A DNA stretch of 32,000 nucleotides from Synechococcus sp. A15-24 (GTDB lineage Bacteria; Cyanobacteriota; Cyanobacteriia; PCC-6307; Cyanobiaceae), in NCBI RefSeq assembly GCF_014280195.1, contig NZ_CP047960.1, positions 600,001-632,000 of the forward strand, in the 5' to 3' direction. Positions 1 to 32,000 of this stretch are shown here, piece after piece. Within the stretch, counting starts at the first letter, position 1. Every line of letters starts with the position of its first letter. The notes beneath the pieces were generated by a model that saw only the letters and a list, made by a program, of their open reading frames with translations, searched no databases and was not told where the DNA came from. The position numbers were made by a program, and so were the translations under genes.

Positions 1-2
1 AA

Positions 3-647
3 AATAGCCATTGGTCCCAACTTTACCACTGGTCTTTTGGTTGGTGGAAATCAGCGGCGGCTCTAGACTGGATTGATTCTTATTGGCACGATTTGCAAAA
101 TGCTTACAATACGAATGAACACTTCGTCTTGAAAGATCCTCGCCTTTGTATTCTGCTCGAGGGCATAATTCCATGCCTAGTTGATTCGCTACTGCAGTTA
201 GATTTTTTGTTGATATTGCGCTCTCCTGTTGAGGTTGTTATGTCCTTGTGTAAGGCAGAGGAAATTTCTCCATACGATGCTCTTAATTTGTGGATCGGAT
301 CAGTATTTCGCGCAGAATGTAGTTCACGTCCGTATTCTCGCAATATTCTCACGTACTACCAGCTCCTTAGTAGGCCACAAACTATTTTGGATTCATTCGG
401 CTTGAACTGGAATCAAAGCTTTATGGAATCCAGGCTTGATCAAGCAACATCCTTTTTAAAGACTTCATTGTATCGAACCAAGGTTGATAACGTAAGGGAA
501 TCGTTCGTGGCAACAAATCCTGAGTTGACTAGTCTTCTTGTTTTGGCTGAACAGATTTTTGATTGTTTTCAACATCCAACCCCAGACATTGCTCGTACAT
601 CAGAGAAATTAAGGTACCAGTGGGTCGAAATCTTGGCAGATCGTTAG
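3..647 (+). CDS. Sulfotransferase-family protein, 5'-partial (the reading frame is open to the left window edge)
   Basis: Manual translation of frame 3 shows no stop from base 3 (NSHWSQLYHWSFGWWKSAAALDWIDSYWHDL...). 'FVLKDPRLCILL' followed by 'LILRSPVEVVMSL' resembles the KDPR...RNPxEVxxSL pattern of bacterial/cyanobacterial sulfotransferase-family proteins. The segment is low GC. Confidence 0.55.
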   Translation, partial: NSHWSQLYHWSFGWWKSAAALDWIDSYWHDLQNAYNTNEHFVLKDPRLCILLEGIIPCLVDSLLQLDFLLILRSPVEVVMSLCKAEEISPYDALNLWIGSVFRAECSSRPYSRNILTYYQLLSRPQTILDSFGLNWNQSFMESRLDQATSFLKTSLYRTKVDNVRESFVATNPELTSLLVLAEQIFDCFQHPTPDIARTSEKLRYQWVEILADR

Positions 648-675
648 CAAACTCTTCTGTAAATAACTTTGCAGC

Positions 676-3024
676 TTACTGTCGCTGATAGTAATCTTTC
701 ATCCTCCTGAAATTGGACCTCAGTTCAATTCCTTGCATAACGCTTTCTGGTGAAGTGTTGAAACTAAAATTTTCATGAATCTTTGTTAGATTTGGATTGT
801 AAAATAAATCACTTGGTAGTTCCCCATTACTTTGAATGTCGTATTGATTTAGCATGAAGTTTATCTCTCTCTTGAACCGTTCTTTCTTCTCGGGAGAGTC
901 CTCAGCTCCGCGGGATATTGATTCGTGGTGAAACAGCTCAGCATACGGGGTGAAAATATTTCGATATCCTCTTCCGTGAACCCTTATGCAAAAGTCGACA
1001 TCGTTAAATGCGATTGTGAGGTCTTGTTCATTGAGGCCGCCGACTTCGTTGAAAATTTCTCTGCGAATTGCGAGACATGCTGCAGTTACTGCTGTCATCT
1101 GTTGTACATATTGAAGCCTGTCGACATAACCAGGACTATCTCCCGGAAAGTATTTATGGGCATGACCGGCGACTTGGCCAATTCCAATAACTACGCCTCC
1201 ATGCTGAATAGTCCCATTTGAATAGTATAACTTTGCACCGACACATCCAACGTCTGGCCTTGAAGTGTGGGAAACAATTTCTTGGAGCCATTCGCCAGAT
1301 ATGACCTCGACATCATTATTGATCAAAGTAACAACATCTGCTTTTGATTGTCGGACTGCATAATTATTGATGGCCGAGTAGTTGAACTTCTTGTTGTATT
1401 TTATTATATTTATTTTTTCGCCATGCGCCCTCTTCAGTTTTTTGAATAGATTCTTCGTGGCGACTTCTTGGCTCTGGTTGTCAACAATTGTGATTGTGTA
1501 GTTCGTGTATGTCGTCTTGGCAATGATTGAATCCACTGCGAGATTCAATACCTCTGCTTGATCTCTAGTGGGGATGATGAGCTCAACAGATGGTGGCTTC
1601 TCTGATGTATGCCACTGGCAGGTGAATCGGTTCCTGGCCTTGATTCGGGCTGTCGCCCTTACGCCTCCACGTCGATGCTGCTCGTCTAGGAAATTCTGGA
1701 CTGCCTTGTGACCGCTTTCAGTTGTGTAATCCTTGCTGTCTGGGTTGCTGGCGGTTGATTCGGAATGTGCTCGCCAGTGGTACAAGACTCTAGGGATGTG
1801 AATAATTTGGTCCGGGGAAGATTCCAGGACAGTTCTGAGTGCAAGATCGTGATCTTGGCTTCCCTCGAAGCCAACTCGGAAGCCACCAATTTGTTTGAGG
1901 ATCTCCCTTCTGTAAACACCCAAGTGTGAGATAAAATTGTATGACAATAAAAGATCAATGTTAAAAGCTGGCTTGAAGTGTGGGCATGAACGCATTCCAT
2001 CGTCGCTGATCTTGTCTTCGTCGCTATAAACTAAATTTGCTTGCGGTTTTTGCTGCAACTCACGTGCAACCCAGTAAAGAGCATTGTCTGCAAGGATGTC
2101 GTCGTGATCTAGTAATGCTACGTATTCTCCTGTCGCCAGACTAAGTGCGTCATTGCTGGCTTCACATATGTGGCCATTCTTTTCGCGAAAGATAAGTTTT
2201 ATTCTAGGGTCTAACGATTGATAGCTCTTGAGGATTGTCTGGACGCTCGCCGCACTGGAGCTGTCATCGCAGATGCAGAGTTCCCAGTTGGGATAGCTTT
2301 GACGGCAGACACTTTCAATGCATTCGCGAAGGTGAATGCTGTTGGTATTGTAGGTAGGAATAACAATGCTGATAAGCGGGGCGTCTTGGTTTAGCTCAAG
2401 CCATTCCCTGATTTGCTCTTCATTGTGGTCGATTTCTGGCTCAATCTCTTTTAGATAGTTCTCATACCTTTCGTCTGTTTCTTTTTTGGTTGGTGTGTCG
2501 AAAGGTGCTTTTGGCCAGGTTTGATGCCTGATCTGAGCCAATCGATAGATCTGTTCCGTTCGCCAAGAAATTTCTTGCGTTATGGAGTACGTCTCTTGCG
2601 CAACTGCGTTGTCGTTTTCCTTGGGTTTTCTTGTTGTCCATTGTCTTAAAACATCTACAAACGTATCTATGGTTGTAGGTAATATTGAAAAGGTCGCATT
2701 GATTGGTCCTTGCCCGCTGATTGGTCTGATCTTGACTCTGCTCCTTTGCAGAACGACGATTGGAAGTACGAGGCACGGTTCTGACCTTGTGCTTTGGGTG
2801 GGCACGGTGAAAGTTCTTGCCAACGATTTGTTGGGCCCAACAGGCTCTATGCAAACGGAGCAAAGTAATGGGCTCTCTTCTGCATTAATTGATAATCGAA
2901 GTAGGTAATATCCTTTGCTTATGCCTTTGCGTGTTTCGAAGTAACAGTCTGCATGTTCGACGTGGTATTCCCCGTTGCCAATTGGTTGTATATTTCTTCT
3001 AACCCAATCCTGACGAAGGGACAT
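676..3024 (-). CDS. Large glycosyltransferase with two tandem GT2 (GT-A) domains and an unassigned ~230-aa N-terminal region; likely a rhamnosyl/polysaccharide transferase
   Basis: There are two GT2 signatures: 'ISIVIPTYNTNSIHLRECIESVCRQSYPNWELCICDDSS...LLDHDD' and 'VELIIPTRDQAEVLNLAVDSIIAKTTYTNYTITIVDNQS...LINNDVE'. I chose the start at ATG 3024 (MSLRQDW) because the longer ORF (to 3090) would overlap the rfbB 3' end. It lies directly downstream of rfbACDB on the same strand. Low GC. Confidence 0.8.
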   Translation of the reverse strand: MSLRQDWVRRNIQPIGNGEYHVEHADCYFETRKGISKGYYLLRLSINAEESPLLCSVCIEPVGPNKSLARTFTVPTQSTRSEPCLVLPIVVLQRSRVKIRPISGQGPINATFSILPTTIDTFVDVLRQWTTRKPKENDNAVAQETYSITQEISWRTEQIYRLAQIRHQTWPKAPFDTPTKKETDERYENYLKEIEPEIDHNEEQIREWLELNQDAPLISIVIPTYNTNSIHLRECIESVCRQSYPNWELCICDDSSSAASVQTILKSYQSLDPRIKLIFREKNGHICEASNDALSLATGEYVALLDHDDILADNALYWVARELQQKPQANLVYSDEDKISDDGMRSCPHFKPAFNIDLLLSYNFISHLGVYRREILKQIGGFRVGFEGSQDHDLALRTVLESSPDQIIHIPRVLYHWRAHSESTASNPDSKDYTTESGHKAVQNFLDEQHRRGGVRATARIKARNRFTCQWHTSEKPPSVELIIPTRDQAEVLNLAVDSIIAKTTYTNYTITIVDNQSQEVATKNLFKKLKRAHGEKINIIKYNKKFNYSAINNYAVRQSKADVVTLINNDVEVISGEWLQEIVSHTSRPDVGCVGAKLYYSNGTIQHGGVVIGIGQVAGHAHKYFPGDSPGYVDRLQYVQQMTAVTAACLAIRREIFNEVGGLNEQDLTIAFNDVDFCIRVHGRGYRNIFTPYAELFHHESISRGAEDSPEKKERFKREINFMLNQYDIQSNGELPSDLFYNPNLTKIHENFSFNTSPESVMQGIELRSNFRRMKDYYQRQ

Positions 3025-3053
3025 GTTTCCTCGGCTTTCTGGTATTTGTTCCA

Positions 3054-4121
3054 CTAGTATTTTTTGTGACCGTAGTGTGCGATGTACCACTGCACGGTCT
3101 TTGCGATGGCTACATCGAAATCATGCCTTGCTTTCCACCCCAGCTCGGTCTCAATACGAGTCGGATCAATGGCATACCGACGGTCGTGGCCGGGACGATC
3201 CGTCACTCGTGTGATCAACCTCGCATGGGGTGCCCCGTCCGGTTTTAGCTGATCCAAGTGGTTGCAGATGCATTCCACGACCTCGCGATTGGTTCGTTCT
3301 CCATAGCCGCCGACGCAGTAACTGCGGCCAGATGCTCCTTTGCAAGCGGCCAGCAGCAGGGCATCGACGTGGTCTTCCACATACAACCAGTCTCTGACGT
3401 TCAATCCATCGCCATACAAGGGAATGGGCTTTCCGGCAGCAGCTTTCAATGTCACGACAGGAATCAACTTTTCGGGAAATTGCCAAGGTCCGTAATTGTT
3501 GGAGCAATTCGTCAACACCACTGGCAATGCATAGGTGTGGTGCCACGCGCTGACGAGATGGTCACTGGCCGCCTTGCTGCTTGAGTATGGACTGCGCGGG
3601 TCATACGGCGTCGTTTCTGAAAAACGCCCCTCTGCGCCCAGGGAGCCGAAGACTTCATCGGTGCTGATGTGATGCAAGCGGAAGTTTTCTTGGCGGTCTC
3701 CGCTCAAGCCCTCGACATGCTCCCGTACCGCCTGCAGCAGGTTGTAGGTCCCAGTCACGTTGCTCTCGATGAACACACCAGGGCCTGCAATTGAGCGGTC
3801 CACATGACTCTCGGCCGCCAGGTGCATCACCAGGTCGGGATCCGCCGCCTTCACCGCCTCACGAACGGCCTTTGCATCCGCGAGGTCCACCCGTTGCAGC
3901 ACATGTCTTTGCTCGGCTCGTTCCCCGAGCTCGCTCAGCACCGCCTCAATCGACGTCAGATCGCTGGCGTAGCCCATCTTGTCGAGGTTGAACACGATCG
4001 CCTCGCTCTCCTTGAGCAGTCGCCGCACCACGGCCCCACCGATAAATCCAGCCCCTCCTGTCACCAGTACCCGCCGCCGGGATCCCAGCAGCTCTGCAGC
4101 AGTCGGCATTGAATCGGTCAT
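3054..4121 (-). CDS. rfbB: dTDP-glucose 4,6-dehydratase
   Basis: 'VLVTGGAGFIGGAVVRRLL', 'HISTDEVFGSL' and 'YSSSKAASDHLV' are typical of RmlB short-chain dehydratases. The start is ambiguous: TTG 4130, ATG 4121 or ATG 4109. Confidence 0.93.
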   Translation of the reverse strand: MTDSMPTAAELLGSRRRVLVTGGAGFIGGAVVRRLLKESEAIVFNLDKMGYASDLTSIEAVLSELGERAEQRHVLQRVDLADAKAVREAVKAADPDLVMHLAAESHVDRSIAGPGVFIESNVTGTYNLLQAVREHVEGLSGDRQENFRLHHISTDEVFGSLGAEGRFSETTPYDPRSPYSSSKAASDHLVSAWHHTYALPVVLTNCSNNYGPWQFPEKLIPVVTLKAAAGKPIPLYGDGLNVRDWLYVEDHVDALLLAACKGASGRSYCVGGYGERTNREVVECICNHLDQLKPDGAPHARLITRVTDRPGHDRRYAIDPTRIETELGWKARHDFDVAIAKTVQWYIAHYGHKKY

Positions 4122-26290: not shown

Positions 26291-27388
26291 GTGTCCGATC
26301 CCAGGGACCTTCAGCTGAGCAGCTACGACTTTCGGCTTCCGCACGAGCGCATCGCCCAGGTACCAGCCGAGCCACGCCACAGTGCCCGTTTGTTGATGGT
26401 GCCCCCGGCGACGCAAGCCCTCGAGGCTGCCCGGCATGGGGTGGTCTGGGATCTGCTGGAGGAGTTGCAACCCGGCGACCTTCTGGTGGTGAACGACACC
26501 CGTGTGCTCAAGGCACGGTTGAAGGTGCGTCGCTCCGGTGGTGGGTTGTCGGAGCTGTTGGTGCTCGAGCCCCGCGGTGAGGGGCGTTGGCTCTGCCTGG
26601 CGCGGCCGGCGAAACGCATGCGGCCCGGCGACGTGCTGACGATTGATGGCACGTCCATCGGCCTGACGGTGTTGGCGGACGACGCAGCCAGTGGCGGGCG
26701 TTTGGTTCAGTTCCCGACGGACTGCCGTGATGCGGAGACGATCGAAACGCTGCTGAATCAGTGGGGCGAGGTTCCGCTCCCCCCTTACATCGACCGGCAT
26801 GAACCCGACGATGTCGAGCGCTATCAGACTCGCTACGCCGATCGACCGGGAGCCGTTGCGGCTCCGACGGCGGGCCTGCATTTCAGCGATGAACTGCTAG
26901 CAGGCCTCCAGCGCAAAGGAGTCGAGCTGGCCAGGATCACCCTGCATGTGGGACTGGGCACCTTCCGTCCTTTGGAGACGGATGATCTGACCAAACTGGA
27001 GCTTCACAGTGAGTGGATCGAGGTGAGTGCGGCGGTGGTGGAGGCCATTCAGCGATGTCGCGGCCGTGTGATTGCCGTGGGTACCACCAGTGTGAGGGCC
27101 CTGGAGGGTGCGGCTCAACACAACGGTGGAGTGCTCCAACCCTTCACCGGGCCCGTCAACCTTGTGATTCAACCGGGCTATCGCTTTACGGTGGTACAAG
27201 GCCTGATCACCAACTTCCACCTCCCGAAAAGCTCGCTGTTGTTGTTGGTCAGTGCGCTTATCGGACGAGAAAAATTGTTGCGGTTGTATGCCGAGGCGGT
27301 TCGAGAGCAGTATCGATTTTTTTCTTACGGAGATGCGATGTGGATTGCGCCAGAAGCAGTGCTGCTGTCGGCTCAGTTGTCGCCGTAG
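26291..27388 (+). CDS. queA: S-adenosylmethionine:tRNA ribosyltransferase-isomerase
   Basis: '[12 protein letters not shown]', 'LLVVNDTRV', 'LPPYI', 'YQTRYA...[12 protein letters not shown]', 'GTTSVRALE', '[17 protein letters not shown]' and '[10 protein letters not shown]' are QueA motifs. GTG start. Confidence 0.93.
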
Positions 27389-28020
27389 ATCGGGTCCAAC
27401 CAAGAAATATCAAGAGGGTCAATATGGAGGAAGGCCGGCTGAATCATCAATTTTTTTTCTTTAACTGCAGTGTGAATCGATTCGCTTGATTCCATCAAAG
27501 ATTTGGATGTGATAACGGCATGTTGGAGACAGGCATCGGCGTAGGAGTCGTCGTTATCGATGTCGATGCCGTGGTTGGTTAGTCCAAGCTTTATGTCGCT
27601 AACGAGCTCTGTTAATGAAGCTGAGAACATCTGTTCTTTGAGAAATGCTGCTTTTACTGCACCGCAACCTTGATGACTCATCACAAGGAGGACACGAACA
27701 TTGAGATCAAGAACGGCGTACTCTATCGATCCAGCCGCTCCAAAAGTGTTTGTATTTCCTGCATTGCGGATCACAAAGAGATCTCCGAAACCTGCATCGA
27801 AGATCACTTCAACCGGAACTCTTGAATCAGAACATGCCAGTAAAGCGACTTGTGGGTGCTGCCCCCCCGCAAGTTCGTGACGACGTGCTTGAGTTGCATG
27901 GGGGTGGTGAGAACTATTGTTCAAGAAGCGACCAAAACCGCGTTTTAATTCTTCAATGATCTCAGTCGGATCACTTAATTTTTGATCTGAATTAGAATCT
28001 ACGTAATCTGATTTGGTCAT
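27373..28020 (-). CDS. Beta-class carbonic anhydrase
   Basis: Zinc ligand motifs '[30 protein letters not shown]' (CxDxR) and '[10 protein letters not shown]' (HxxC). Low GC. The 3' end overlaps the queA 3' end by 16 nt (convergent). Confidence 0.88.
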
Positions 28021-28151
28021 TAGGTTAACTTCGCTATCTATTTCATCATCGCCAAAATCGATAAAAGGGAAGGTTTTGGTCAGCGAACCCTGACATTTTT
28101 GCGGGACATTCCCAAACTTTTCGTCATAATAAAATTACATATGAAAGATCG
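28021..28151. promoter_or_regulatory. AT-rich divergent intergenic region, presumed bidirectional promoter region for the carbonic anhydrase and the transporter operon
   Basis: A 131-bp non-coding gap between divergent ATGs. A -10-like 'cataat' lies at 28125-28130, 22 nt upstream of the 28152 ATG. I could not identify a convincing -35 element or a known operator. Confidence 0.3.
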
Positions 28152-29561
28152 ATGATCTCCAGTCTTGCAAATCTGTTGATTTTAGCTTTTACAAAGCCAG
28201 CTGCGGAAGTTGAGACTGCTGGTGAAATTCTTCAAAGCTTACCTGCTCTCCACTTTTCCTTTCCTGCGGCACTCCTATCGCTCTCTTTGCTGATACTGGT
28301 CAGCATCTTGTTTGAAAAACTTGGCGTCAAGCTTGGCATCCCGGGATCCATTTTCTTATTTTTTGCCGGTCTTTTTTCCCATGTTTCGGGGTTTAGTTTT
28401 GAATCTTTTCCGATAGAAGAACTTCATGTTGTAGCTTTATGCATTTTATTGTTCTTCAGCGGGCTTTCTTTTGATCGTTCGCTTTTGAGGGAAAGTAAAG
28501 TTCTAGCTAGCTCTATAAATTTGGCTTTATTCGGAACATTGCTGAGCATGTTGTTTTGGCTTTTTTATTTGTTGATAGGATTTGGTTTTTTTCAGAGTGC
28601 TTTTGGCTATTTAGAGGGAGTAAATCAAGAATTGATCAGTCTGGTAGTAGTTTCTGTAATTTTTTGCATTGCGGTACAAGATTGGAATTCTTTTATGTTT
28701 GTTTCCAAAAGAATAAAAGATTTCCGATCAACTTTGTCTAACATATTTAAAATAGAAACTGCCATATCAGCCTCAATTTCAGTGGCAATTGCTGAAATTC
28801 TTGTCCTTATTTGGCTCGCTATTCATCCTGAATATCAGTTTATGGGTAGTTCGCAGATGTTTATATCGATTTTCCAGGGAATATTGGTTGGATCAGTTGC
28901 AGGAATAGTCCTCGGTTACCTTTTGATGCTAACGATTCGTCATGTAATTACTTCCAAACCTCAGCTTGTTTTAGTTGCTGTTGCGTTCACTCTAATTGGT
29001 TACGTGGTATCTTTTTCAATCACGCACCAGGGCGGATATCTTTGTGCGCTAGTGATGGGTATTGTTACTTCTCTGGCTTACCGAAAAAGCTCAACCGATG
29101 AAGAAATAGAATTTCTCGCAGAAGAATTGGAAACTCTCAATATCGCTTCTGAAGCGATCCTCTTCTTTGCGATTGGTCTTGGACTTGAGGCCACTTCCTT
29201 TATTGCTCATCTGCCAGTGGCGATCTACGTCTGGCTTGGAATCATCATTATCAGGCCAATTACAGTCAACCTCTTTTTCAAAGGCTCTGCCGCAAAGCCG
29301 GAAGAACGTCAGCTGTTGTCGCTGTGGAGTCCGAAGGGTGCTATTTCAATGGCTTTAGCTGTTACAGCACCAGAACTGCTGGAGGGAACTTTCGGTCTCG
29401 AGATTGCTGAAATTTTTCCAGAAAATGCTTTTAACTTCTCAGCGGATATTGTTTGCGGCGCCGTATTACTTTCGATGATCATTAAATCCTTGGCGATTCC
29501 AAAAATGCATTCCCAACTTATTGGAAATCAAAAAATTGTCTCAATAAACCAAGAGGTCTGA
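28152..29561 (+). CDS. Divergent cation:proton antiporter (CPA / Na_H_Exchanger)-fold membrane protein
   Basis: About 11-13 hydrophobic segments. 'KLGVKLGIPGSIFLFFAGLF' and 'LHVVALCILLFFSGLSFD' resemble the first two conserved CPA helices (LGxPxxxGxLLAG, LLFxxGLEL), and 'WSPKGAISMALA' resembles the late (P)RG(E/L)VSxxLA motif. Low GC. Confidence 0.7.
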   Translation: MISSLANLLILAFTKPAAEVETAGEILQSLPALHFSFPAALLSLSLLILVSILFEKLGVKLGIPGSIFLFFAGLFSHVSGFSFESFPIEELHVVALCILLFFSGLSFDRSLLRESKVLASSINLALFGTLLSMLFWLFYLLIGFGFFQSAFGYLEGVNQELISLVVVSVIFCIAVQDWNSFMFVSKRIKDFRSTLSNIFKIETAISASISVAIAEILVLIWLAIHPEYQFMGSSQMFISIFQGILVGSVAGIVLGYLLMLTIRHVITSKPQLVLVAVAFTLIGYVVSFSITHQGGYLCALVMGIVTSLAYRKSSTDEEIEFLAEELETLNIASEAILFFAIGLGLEATSFIAHLPVAIYVWLGIIIIRPITVNLFFKGSAAKPEERQLLSLWSPKGAISMALAVTAPELLEGTFGLEIAEIFPENAFNFSADIVCGAVLLSMIIKSLAIPKMHSQLIGNQKIVSINQEV

Positions 29562-29564
29562 ATT

Positions 29565-30227
29565 ATGTTGAAAAGAAAGTTGACTGACCGATACCGACTC
29601 TTACGGGCTCTTTTGGTTGGAGCCGTGGTGAGTGTCCTCTTTTCGCCAGTCTTGGCAACTAAGGAAGTGATTACTGTTGCGATCACATTTTCGCTTTTAC
29701 TTGACTTTTTGATCTTGATCAAGCAGTCATGGCTAATTGGAATCAATGAAACGAGGGAAATCTTTCAGCAATTCAATGCCAAAGAGTCCTCTGTTGCTGT
29801 GAGGACTATAGCCCTTGTCTTCCTAAGTGTAGGTATCTTGAGTTTTTGTATTGCCGAACTGCATTCCAAGAATGATGTTTTGCCAAATAGCCTTCACATC
29901 TTTATAAGTTTCATTGCTCTTTTTTTAACCTGGTTTCAGCTGCACAATGGGTTTGCACTCTACTACGCGAAGAAGTACTTTGACATGAACCCGGATGTTC
30001 TTGTTGAATCCGAGGATCAAAAAGGATTTGTATTTGAAGGGGCAGAGCCTACATTTAGCGATTTTTTGTACATATCTTATTCAATAGGCCTTACCTATTC
30101 AATGACTGATTGTGGTATTAAGGATTCTTCCGTCAGGCGTGTTGTCATTATTCACTGTCTTTCATCATTTCTGTTTGCCTCAACAGTCCTCTCTATCATA
30201 TTTTCATTGGCAACTAAAGTGAGTTGA
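29565..30227 (+). CDS. DUF1345-family membrane protein
   Basis: 'WFQLHNGFALYYAKKYF...GFVFEGAEPTFSDFLYISYSIGLTYSMTDCGIKDSSVRRVVIIHCLSSFLF' matches the DUF1345 core as I recall it (FALHYA...F.G...P.Y.DFLYFSF.IG.T...SDV...R...L.H). It starts 3 nt after the transporter stop, with AAGAGG 8 nt upstream. Confidence 0.72.
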   Translation: MLKRKLTDRYRLLRALLVGAVVSVLFSPVLATKEVITVAITFSLLLDFLILIKQSWLIGINETREIFQQFNAKESSVAVRTIALVFLSVGILSFCIAELHSKNDVLPNSLHIFISFIALFLTWFQLHNGFALYYAKKYFDMNPDVLVESEDQKGFVFEGAEPTFSDFLYISYSIGLTYSMTDCGIKDSSVRRVVIIHCLSSFLFASTVLSIIFSLATKVS

Positions 30228-30355: not shown

Positions 30356-30658
30356 ATGTTTGAACTCGAGTATCTCGTTGCCTTTGGCTTGGGCGCTGGG
30401 CTCGTCGCACTTACTCCTGTTGTAGCAGCTGCTGCCGGGAAAGAAAGTTCCATCACGAAATCTGTTGCAGGTGCTGGCCGCGGCCTTACAAAACAAGGCC
30501 TTAAGGTCGGCCTCTTCGTGGGTGGCAAGGTGTCTGGACTCTTTTCTGGCGTAAAGTCTGGCATTAATGAAGTTGGTGAAAGCTTCGGCGACATCCTTGC
30601 TGAAGCCAAAGCCGACATGGCGGCACCGAAAACCAAAACCGCATCACCAAAGGCTTAA
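30356..30658 (+). CDS. Small Gly/Ala-rich membrane-associated protein with a glycine-zipper repeat (DUF5132-like)
   Basis: N-terminal hydrophobic segment 'YLVAFGLGAGLVALTPVVAAAAG'. Gly falls at residues 48, 52, 56, 57, 61, 65, 69, 74 and 78 (GxxxG periodicity). The C-terminal 'EVGESFGDILAEAKADM' resembles my recollection of the DUF5132 consensus. The antisense ORFs here are judged artefacts. Confidence 0.6.
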   Translation: MFELEYLVAFGLGAGLVALTPVVAAAAGKESSITKSVAGAGRGLTKQGLKVGLFVGGKVSGLFSGVKSGINEVGESFGDILAEAKADMAAPKTKTASPKA

Positions 30659-30661
30659 GGC

Positions 30662-31102
30662 TTGCGAGTTACAGTTAAACACCGTATTTTTGGGCGCGTA
30701 AGATTTTGTTGGCAAAAAAAATTAACATTCTATGACATGCATTTCATGGAATGTTCATTTTTTTTTGTGTTTCCCACATGTCGTTTTCGACCGGTTTCGG
30801 GCAATTCTGGTTGTGTGATCCATTTTGATGAAGCTGCTGATCATTCACTCTTTTCTCAGATCACTACGTGGATAGGTGATTTCTTAGCAATTGGCAATTG
30901 TCAGGGACCCTTGCTTCCACCGTCCAAGACGGATTTATTGATCGATAAGGCTAAAGGTTGGACAGCTCAGTCCATGATCGTAATAGCAATACTTGGCTGG
31001 ATTCTTCCAATTCTTCCAGGAACACCTTTTTTCTTACTAGCTTGGTGGCTTGGTTGGAGACCAGTATCGTCAACTGAGCTGTCAGTTGTGACTGAACCAT
31101 AG
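30662..31102 (+). CDS. HMA2/CoBaHMA-like domain fused to a truncated DUF454 (YbaN)-like membrane hairpin
   Basis: 'VKHRIFGRVRFCW' resembles the H-x-x-P-G-R-x-R-f strand of HMA_2/CoBaHMA domains, with Pro replaced by Phe. 'PVSGNSGCVIHFDE' resembles the '..tgSllI.yd' strand. The C-terminal 'ILGWILPILPGTPFFLLAWWLGWRPVSS' resembles the DUF454 start (LP.LPTTPFLLLAA..F.RSS). A TTG start lies 3 nt after the preceding stop. Confidence 0.55.
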   Translation: MRVTVKHRIFGRVRFCWQKKLTFYDMHFMECSFFFVFPTCRFRPVSGNSGCVIHFDEAADHSLFSQITTWIGDFLAIGNCQGPLLPPSKTDLLIDKAKGWTAQSMIVIAILGWILPILPGTPFFLLAWWLGWRPVSSTELSVVTEP

Positions 31103-32000
31103 AGTAAGCCATCCTAGAGCGATTTGAGCACGCTCACATTGCTTGGAAACGAACTCTGTTGGCAATGCAATACTTCGGCAATACCCATTGAATATCAAAT
31201 GTATGCTTGCGTCGACTTGTTCGATTTTTAAATTAGCCTTTGTCACACCCGGCAAGAATATTTTTGCGCAAAGTTTCTCTGTATCCCACTCCTCGATGCG
31301 ATTGCTTGCTCTCTTCTCATCATTTGTTTTGGCTTCTTCAACTAAAGCGGGAACTGCGATTGATTTGTTGATCATTATTGGTCCCTGTCGGCATTCATTC
31401 TCGAGTTCAACATTGGCTTCAGTACTTGCCTCCTCGACTATTAGAATATGAGGTATTGCACGGTGCATTCCAGCAATGCTAAGCCGATTCCTTAGCTGCG
31501 CAGGCTTGTAGTTCTTGCCGTCAAGAATTAATGTGAAATGATGATTGCTACGATCAGAGATCGTTTTTTGTAGGAGATGTAAGCGGCTTTTCCAGGCGTC
31601 GTTAAGACGCAACTGTTGTGACGAGGGCAAGCGTAGGCGTAGTATTTTTTCGACTGTCGAGAGTGTTTGGCGCGTTTTGTCCCACCAGTTGAGCAACGGC
31701 TCAAGCAATTGGTCGATCAAGGCTGGACCCTTTTGCGCCATGCCCAGGATTTTCAGTGCATGCAATGGCGTTGGCAGGATTGCGATCAAAATTGTCCCCA
31801 TTTGAGCACTCTCCAGTGCTTCTGAGAAGAAGATTAATTTGGTTAAATCTTCGATTCCAGGTATTGGAGGGAGCTCGGTTGATTGTTTAGAGGCAATGTC
31901 GAGCAGTTGCCACCACTCACTAGCGTGAGGATTGAGCTGCTTCCAAAGCTGCTTGAGAACACTGATATGGTCGAAGTATTGAATAATACAATTGTTGCTC
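31082..32000 (-). CDS. Get3/ArsA-family-like protein with a C-terminal HSP20/alpha-crystallin-like domain, 5'-partial (the frame is open to the right window edge)
   Basis: Manual translation upstream of Met-31801 shows no stop up to base 31999. 'IPGIEDLTKLIFF...ILIAILPTPLHALKIL' aligns with the ArsA 'PGxDE...yDvivvDtAPTGHTLRLL' region but is degenerate. The C-terminal 'KIFLPGVTKANLKIEQVDASIHLIFNGYCRSIALPTEF...ERAQIALGWLTLWF' matches the HSP20-like tail of cyanobacterial/plastid ArsA homologues. Confidence 0.6.
   Translation of the reverse strand, partial: SNNCIIQYFDHISVLKQLWKQLNPHASEWWQLLDIASKQSTELPPIPGIEDLTKLIFFSEALESAQMGTILIAILPTPLHALKILGMAQKGPALIDQLLEPLLNWWDKTRQTLSTVEKILRLRLPSSQQLRLNDAWKSRLHLLQKTISDRSNHHFTLILDGKNYKPAQLRNRLSIAGMHRAIPHILIVEEASTEANVELENECRQGPIMINKSIAVPALVEEAKTNDEKRASNRIEEWDTEKLCAKIFLPGVTKANLKIEQVDASIHLIFNGYCRSIALPTEFVSKQCERAQIALGWLTLWFSHN

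Follow-up and report, generated by a model that had tools for sequence, protein, structure and literature searches.

A β-carbonic anhydrase and a DUF1345 membrane protein next to queA in Synechococcus sp. A15-24 as putative members of a calcyanin-type gene cassette

We analyzed a 32,000-nt stretch of Synechococcus sp. A15-24 (hereafter the window, to which positions refer unless stated otherwise; source genome G000, island locus L039). It contains an island that begins at the 3' end of queA with three genes, which encode a β-carbonic anhydrase (CA; 27373–28020, minus strand), a membrane protein of the cation/proton antiporter (CPA) type (28152–29561, plus strand) and a DUF1345 membrane protein (29565–30227, plus strand). 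Judged from gene neighborhoods in other genomes, it is DUF1345 and a calcyanin/CoBaHMA gene cassette, not the CPA, that the CA is conservedly associated with. The strongest indication from these comparisons is that CA and DUF1345 would be integral, co-inherited parts of a calcyanin-type cassette, and the CPA appears to be an accessory gene, which may be lost or remain by itself. The core genes are shared by the marine form of the cassette, which has no calcyanin and additionally carries an NhaP-derived protein without the ND carboxylate. We lean toward the view that the three genes are the queA-proximal part of an ancient cassette, specific to picocyanobacteria, for the membrane-associated handling of cations and carbonate.

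The survey beyond the genus took in metagenome contigs as well as 40 loci in picocyanobacterial genomes, each anchored on a CA homologue, and orthology of the cassettes was judged from tblastn synteny maps of approximately 30 loci. The cassette is present in 22 of the 40 CA-anchored loci. In Vulcanococcus, Cyanobium and their allies, the CA gene has a divergent neighbor in DUF1345 and a convergent one in the gene of a 313–318-residue protein, and in freshwater loci the 3' ends of the two convergent genes overlap. The gene of the 313–318-residue protein is in turn divergent from DUF5132, which is followed on the same strand by a DUF454 gene. Farther along, an ArsA-like gene is divergent from a small open reading frame (ORF), and an ATPase, another ORF and a degenerate ATPase follow in the direction of the small ORF before a second, oppositely oriented copy of DUF1345. 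The order is the same in freshwater and estuarine contigs and genomes. The orthologous CAs of Vulcanococcus, Cyanobium and related lineages are 41–47% identical to that of the island, and the marine island has adjacent orthologues of the DUF5132, DUF454-tailed, ArsA-like and CPC-less ATPase genes. The GC content of the cassette equals that of its flanks in Vulcanococcus, Cyanobium and allies (0.60–0.68); it is 0.42–0.46 in the marine cassette versus 0.58–0.63 in the flanks.

CoBaHMA-type calcyanins are defined by three glycine-zipper repeats with a central Gly-Pro, conserved Trp and Glu residues in repeat 3, a histidine in strand β0 of the N-terminal CoBaHMA domain, and a PdsO-like second repeat (PMC8890360). 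The 313–318-residue neighbor of the CA has a CoBaHMA-like N-terminus with the β0 histidine and three glycine-zipper repeats. Gly-Pro is invariant in repeats 1 and 2, Trp and Glu are invariant in repeat 3, and the PdsO model matches repeat 2 (2e-4). In agreement with the published definition, this protein is identified as a CoBaHMA-type calcyanin. An incomplete literature search found no work that pairs calcyanin with these genera. In the source genome, a profile search with nine sequences found no calcyanin gene (ccyA; best E-value 0.18), and none was found in the sampled congeners.

The island also resembles the ccyA neighborhoods of cyanobacteria that form intracellular amorphous calcium carbonate (iACC) in its adjacent DUF5132 and CoBaHMA-DUF454 genes (Benzerara et al., 2022, PMC8890360; 10.1101/2024.07.07.602159). 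In Microcystis PCC 7806, homologues of these two genes are co-expressed with ccyA (bioRxiv 10.1101/2024.07.07.602159). In addition, cation/H+ exchangers and cation ATPases occur near ccyA in the known neighborhoods, as they do in the island. The megaplasmid of Fischerella NIES-4106 carries a CA and cation ATPases in the vicinity of ccyA, and the orthologous CA directly abuts ccyA in freshwater picocyanobacteria. The co-expression in Microcystis and the CA near ccyA in Fischerella fit the interpretation as a cation/carbonate cassette. The known neighborhoods differ from the island in having ccyA, which is absent from the source genome and its genus, and the island has no cax gene, unlike them. 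In the calcyanin/CoBaHMA literature, as far as an incomplete search covered it, no mention was found of the CA–DUF1345 pair, the CPC-less ATPase with its degenerate twin or the NhaP-like protein lacking ND.

Co-occurrence was surveyed in 401 genomes of the family and 251 cyanobacterial genomes of the class, with statistics that are not phylogenetically corrected. In the family, ccyA was found in 18 genomes, none of which belongs to the genus of A15-24, and the CA adjoins it in 13 of the 18. Members of the CA family occur in every one of the 18 ccyA-positive genomes versus 100 of the 383 others. DUF1345 occurs in 16 of the 18 versus 20 of the 383, and the remaining two ccyA-positive loci are cut by contig ends. 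In the class survey, full-length calcyanin was detected in 20 genomes from seven genera. PF07077, the DUF1345 family, occurs in 15 of these 20 genomes versus 42 of the other 231, and, counted by genus, in all seven ccyA-positive genera versus 21 of 120 others.

In A15-24, the GC content drops from approximately 0.64 to 0.38–0.45 at the stop codon of queA (27.4 kb), and the low-GC block measures 11.5 kb in the whole genome (genome coordinates 627.4–638.8 kb). The core gene queA (26291–27388, plus strand; NCBIfam queA, 2.6e-128) provides with its 3' end the fixed left border of the island. The same border and the same order, with queA convergent to a CA gene that is divergent from CPA, DUF1345, DUF5132 and the following genes, are seen in G010, G019, G029, G031 and G263. 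Proteins of these congeners are 54–81% identical to those of the island, and the recurrence of the gene order in six other genomes of the genus is far beyond chance. In the source genome and four relatives (five genomes), the 3' ends of the CA and queA genes overlap by 16 nt including the stop codons (27373–27388). Seven congeneric genomes carry the island immediately 3' of queA, and its distribution in the genus is patchy (5 of 37 genomes). In Synechococcus sp. MIT S1220, the cassette is present without the CPA. The place taken by the CPA in other marine cassettes, between CA and DUF1345, is there occupied by 1 kb of noncoding, AT-rich DNA (L052 8961–10010; 36% GC), in which no CPA remnant was detectable. 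The queA site holds the CPA alone in G002, G009 and G021 and a divergent DUF1345 alone in G012, G023 and G024. Across the genus, the region 3' of queA is a hotspot that occurs in three states, with the full cassette, with just a CPA-like gene or with just a divergent DUF1345.

An earlier note on this DNA, made from the letters alone, had described a complete β-CA transcribed divergently across a 131-bp gap from a 469-residue CPA-fold protein, which is followed 3 nt later by DUF1345 with its own ribosome-binding site. Coordinates, Pfam matches and the CSDSR and HQGCG motifs all agree with that description. The ribosome-binding site AAGAGG (29551–29556, plus strand) was read from the sequence 8 nt ahead of the DUF1345 ATG at 29565, and the CPA stop codon TGA occupies 29559–29561. 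The divergent arrangement of the CA with CPA–DUF1345 is conserved in six marine genomes, and we regard it as compatible with the co-regulation proposed in the note. Within the intergenic region (28021–28151), a promoter-like GGGACA-16-CATAAT was located at 28103–28130 (plus strand); the number of such matches in the 131 bp is at chance level, not above the shuffled expectation. No motif common across lineages was found in this region, whose sequence is poorly conserved between them, and no Rfam element was found in the island.

Ratios of nonsynonymous to synonymous substitution (dN/dS), taken from unsaturated pairs, are 0.07–0.12 for CA, 0.04–0.15 for CPA and 0.04–0.18 for DUF1345, similar to queA (0.08–0.11), and indicate that all three genes are under purifying selection. 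The dS values of island genes are approximately 1–2 times those of queA in the same pairs. Together, these values argue for old, functional genes that have diverged broadly in step with the core genome, rather than for a recent import. Decay of the three genes to pseudogenes was ruled out by dN/dS, and a recent foreign origin of the CA by its dS and by its position in a picocyanobacteria-only clade. Consequently, of the earlier claim of an island-borne, horizontally acquired CA, the first part stands (GC drop, patchy distribution in 5 of 37 genomes) and the second does not, given the clade, the dS values and the shared location beside queA in divergent lineages.

The 215-residue CA scores 107 bits (1.4e-30) against Pfam Pro_CA (PF00484; cut-off, 25.7). 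It has the Cys-His-Cys zinc ligands and the Asp-Arg dyad (CxDxR ... HxxC) of β-CAs, and the catalytic residues Cys63, Asp65, Arg67, His116 and Cys119 are intact and invariant in 17 aligned homologues. The N-terminus is acidic and lacks a hydrophobic stretch, and no Tat (twin-arginine), Sec or lipoprotein signal was found in it, so that the protein should be cytosolic. The nearest solved structure is Mycobacterium tuberculosis Rv3588c (PDB 2A5V, 1.3e-24). The island CA is similar in length to the Rv3588c/CanB-type enzymes (2A5V, 1YM3) and has their Cys-Asp-Arg...His-Cys zinc site. It differs from them in that the identity over the N-terminal half is only approximately 40% and in being part of a clade that is specific to picocyanobacteria and has motifs of its own, HPHAT and GQHP. 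EcaB and CcaA are likewise β-class enzymes. However, EcaB is exported, and the island CA has neither the Tat nor the lipoprotein signal; CcaA has a C-terminal extension of approximately 50–60 residues that is missing from the island CA, which ends soon after the catalytic domain. The match to CcaA (5SWC, 2.1e-15) is weaker than that to Rv3588c.

In the phylogenetic tree, the CAs linked to cassettes, 23 in all, group as a single clade (SH-aLRT 94), which is nested in a group found only in picocyanobacteria. The marine CAs make up a long-branched subclade beside the Vulcanococcus sequences. Stand-alone CAs of Cyanobium fall into the same picocyanobacterial group. The source genome encodes a second β-CA (232 residues; G000:C1:2243390-2244088, L038 1890–2588) with a twin-arginine signal (MGIQRRQFLQ..., with RRQFL) and intact CSDSR/HSGCG motifs. 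Such a Tat-exported, EcaB-like β-CA is near-universal in the genus, and cells regarded as having CsoSCA only therefore also have an exported CA. The premise of the note that these cyanobacteria rely mainly on CsoSCA was incomplete in this respect.

The CPA matches Pfam Na_H_Exchanger weakly (3.4e-17, 62.8 bits). A single-sequence search of the PDB found nothing and a profile search only a weak match to MjNhaP1, and the fold assignment was settled by fold search and hhalign. The AlphaFold2 model (pLDDT 76) matched PaNhaP and MjNhaP1 in Foldseek (E-value 1e-9, TM-score 0.63–0.70), and hhalign against canonical NhaP gave a probability of 99.1. Foldseek and Pfam thus place the protein in the NhaP fold with crossed transmembrane helices TM4 and TM11. 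It resembles the NhaP/CPA1 antiporters MjNhaP1 (4CZB) and PaNhaP (4CZ8/9) in this 13-TM fold and in the TD-motif aspartate (Asp177), the TM5 glutamate (Glu202) and the TM10 arginine (Arg368). In contrast, the ND motif of the antiporters is replaced by Ser206-Ala207, with canonical ESAVND aligned to ETAISA by hhalign, and their TM11 arginine by Lys395. Ser206 is invariant in the family and Ala207 is conserved at a level of at least 90%. The ND carboxylate, an aspartate acting as the central ion/proton carrier, is needed for exchange by CPA1 proteins. The family is small, consisting of 93 close marine homologues and a few freshwater ones, also with Ser-Ala, and occurs exclusively in the cassette or at the site of the cassette in the chromosome. 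In three freshwater genomes (L065–L067), a homologue of the Ser-Ala type lies at the far end of the cassette. A full-library profile search also revealed other NhaP-like lineages in which ND is replaced by GS, GA, NC, SS, TN, TT or ST and the TD aspartate is kept (P0246, P0247, P0253, P0265, P0269, P0274, P0276, P0281 and P0305). ND-less CPA1 proteins thus look like a wider class.

The 220-residue DUF1345 protein matches PF07077 over profile positions 7–172 of 173 (4.7e-30; 105 bits, cut-off 31.8) and has six to seven helices. Its AlphaFold2 model (pLDDT 75) gave no Foldseek match to the PDB below an E-value of 0.9 and hence no structural relative, and the literature on DUF1345 and BPSS1818 gives no molecular function. 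In a Thermosynechococcus-sized genome (G601:C1:1678243-1681102), a DUF1345 gene lies approximately 2 kb from a 619-residue ORF with a CoBaHMA-like N-terminus, which hints that the link between DUF1345 and CoBaHMA reaches beyond picocyanobacteria.

From the genomic context, the most likely function of the CA is equilibration of CO2, HCO3− and H+ for a membrane system handling cations and carbonate, and not an energized uptake of inorganic carbon (Ci). Formation and dissolution of carbonate and cation/H+ exchange make or use protons and interconvert CO2 and HCO3−, so a CA beside the membrane proteins of the cassette would both buffer and supply. It may provide (bi)carbonate, dissipate local pH changes and, during pumping or sequestration of a divalent cation (Ca2+ being the most plausible), buffer the protons that are exchanged. 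DUF1345, as the most constant membrane partner of the CA, would act as a channel, carrier or anchor, and the NhaP-like protein as an optional ion/proton pathway with altered specificity. The output of the calcyanin-less marine form would be handling of cations and carbonate or of pH, for which visible iACC granules need not be formed.

Several points weigh against this interpretation. The link of the marine form to carbonate granules is indirect, because calcyanin was found neither in the source genome nor in the sampled congeners, and the roles of calcyanin and the other cassette members are drawn from genomic context. Common descent of the genomes inflates the statistics of co-occurrence. 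Adjacency of the CA is not universal: in one genus ccyA is 360–400 kb away from the cassette with CA and DUF1345, and in another the cassette includes DUF1345 and ccyA, with the CA elsewhere. DUF1345 is absent from five ccyA-positive genomes of the class survey. Furthermore, the CO2-concentrating mechanism should be short-circuited by a CA that is active in the cytosol without regulation, and some control or tethering of the enzyme in this α-cyanobacterium must be assumed.

The note had suggested that the CA may be functionally coupled to the CPA. In such a model, ion/H+ flux through the antiporter would drive CO2 hydration, and Ci uptake or recapture of leaked CO2 would result, as in a DAB system. 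The divergent arrangement kept in the marine genomes and the predicted cytosolic location of the CA are in line with this idea, as is the small number of Ci uptake systems in marine Synechococcus. DabA/DabB pumps are also alike in concept, with a CA-type active site beside a cation-translocating membrane protein. We nevertheless regard such a pump as very unlikely, because the CPA is dispensable, lacks the ND carboxylate and is not accompanied by a Dab-like component. It is absent from most cassettes with an orthologous CA and from MIT S1220, and stands alone beside queA in three genomes. Neither PF10070 (DabA) nor PF00361 (DabB-like), both of which DAB pumps have, was detected when the proteins of the island were all scanned with Pfam and NCBIfam. 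Moreover, the CA is an ordinary soluble β-CA in another genetic context, with calcyanin, DUF1345 and cation-pump genes as conserved neighbors.

The island may instead serve pH, salt or cation homeostasis in general, with no connection to carbonate and with the CA buffering protons moved by the P-type ATPase, GDT1 and the NhaP-like protein as a CA–transporter metabolon. Its genes are almost wholly ion-transport-like, its marine form has no calcyanin, and the CPA-only and DUF1345-only remnants suggest that the parts are useful singly. This alternative is unlikely, though the least so of those considered here, since calcyanin is tightly linked to this set of genes in 13 of the 18 ccyA-positive family genomes and DUF1345 tracks ccyA across the class. 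Degenerate members such as the dead ATPase and the ND-less NhaP also fit a dedicated assembly better than housekeeping transport. A role in trace metals (Zn, Co, Cd or Mn), with the P1B ATPase and GDT1 managing metals and the CA as a metal-dependent client or sink, seems scarcely probable. The ATPase does score with the heavy-metal P1B model (449 bits, TIGR01525), Mn2+ or Ca2+ is transported by GDT1/UPF0016 proteins, and β-CAs require Zn, but the ATPase has neither a CPC/SPC/CPH motif nor a CxxC HMA domain (CoBaHMA, according to PMC8890360), and the calcyanin linkage speaks for Ca and carbonate instead. A bolder extension of the favored cation/carbonate cassette is quite unlikely in our estimate: open-ocean Synechococcus would sequester or buffer alkaline earths as (bi)carbonate independently of calcyanin, by means of the cytosolic β-CA, DUF1345 and the ND-less NhaP, and DUF1345 or the NhaP derivative would be a new pathway for HCO3−/CO3(2−) or Ca2+ on an unexpected scaffold.

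To our knowledge, calcyanin is so far the sole genetic marker for intracellular carbonate biomineralization in cyanobacteria. The present analysis nominates two concrete conserved partners for it, a dedicated cytosolic β-CA and DUF1345, and points to a calcyanin-less cassette kept under purifying selection in wild marine Synechococcus. It makes two questions testable, namely which chemistry the cassette performs without calcyanin and how a CO2-concentrating cell tolerates a cytosolic CA. NhaP-fold proteins without the ND carboxylate are flagged as a group for studies of transport chemistry.

The remaining island genes follow DUF1345. The small membrane protein DUF5132 (30356–30658, plus strand; Pfam, 2.1e-6) and a protein with a short DUF454-like C-terminus (30662–31102, plus strand; weak Pfam DUF454 match) are cassette members with orthologues in nearly all cassettes examined. 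The latter was typed as CoBaHMA-DUF454 by orthology with the Microcystis gene, and Pfam did not detect a CoBaHMA domain in it. An ArsA/Get3-like protein with an HSP20-like tail (31082–32000, minus strand; Pfam ArsA_HSP20) continues past the end of the window and has 353 residues in L039. It is followed by a 132-residue ORF, an 844-residue P1B-type ATPase (L039 6622–9156), a 191-residue ORF, a degenerate 696-residue ATPase (L039 9690–11780), a GDT1/UPF0016 protein and a 175-residue ORF, after which come core cysK-like genes. The 844-residue ATPase keeps DKTGT, TGE and GDGIND, and the region of the missing transmembrane metal motif reads ..FDLGTGLRVSVPTAIM... Its 696-residue paralogue, the dead twin, lacks DKTGT, TGE and GDGxND. 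A second low-GC block (0.41–0.45) is present at the left end of the window (1–3100; genome 591–603 kb). It encodes an 804-residue double glycosyltransferase-2 protein and is probably a cell-surface island.

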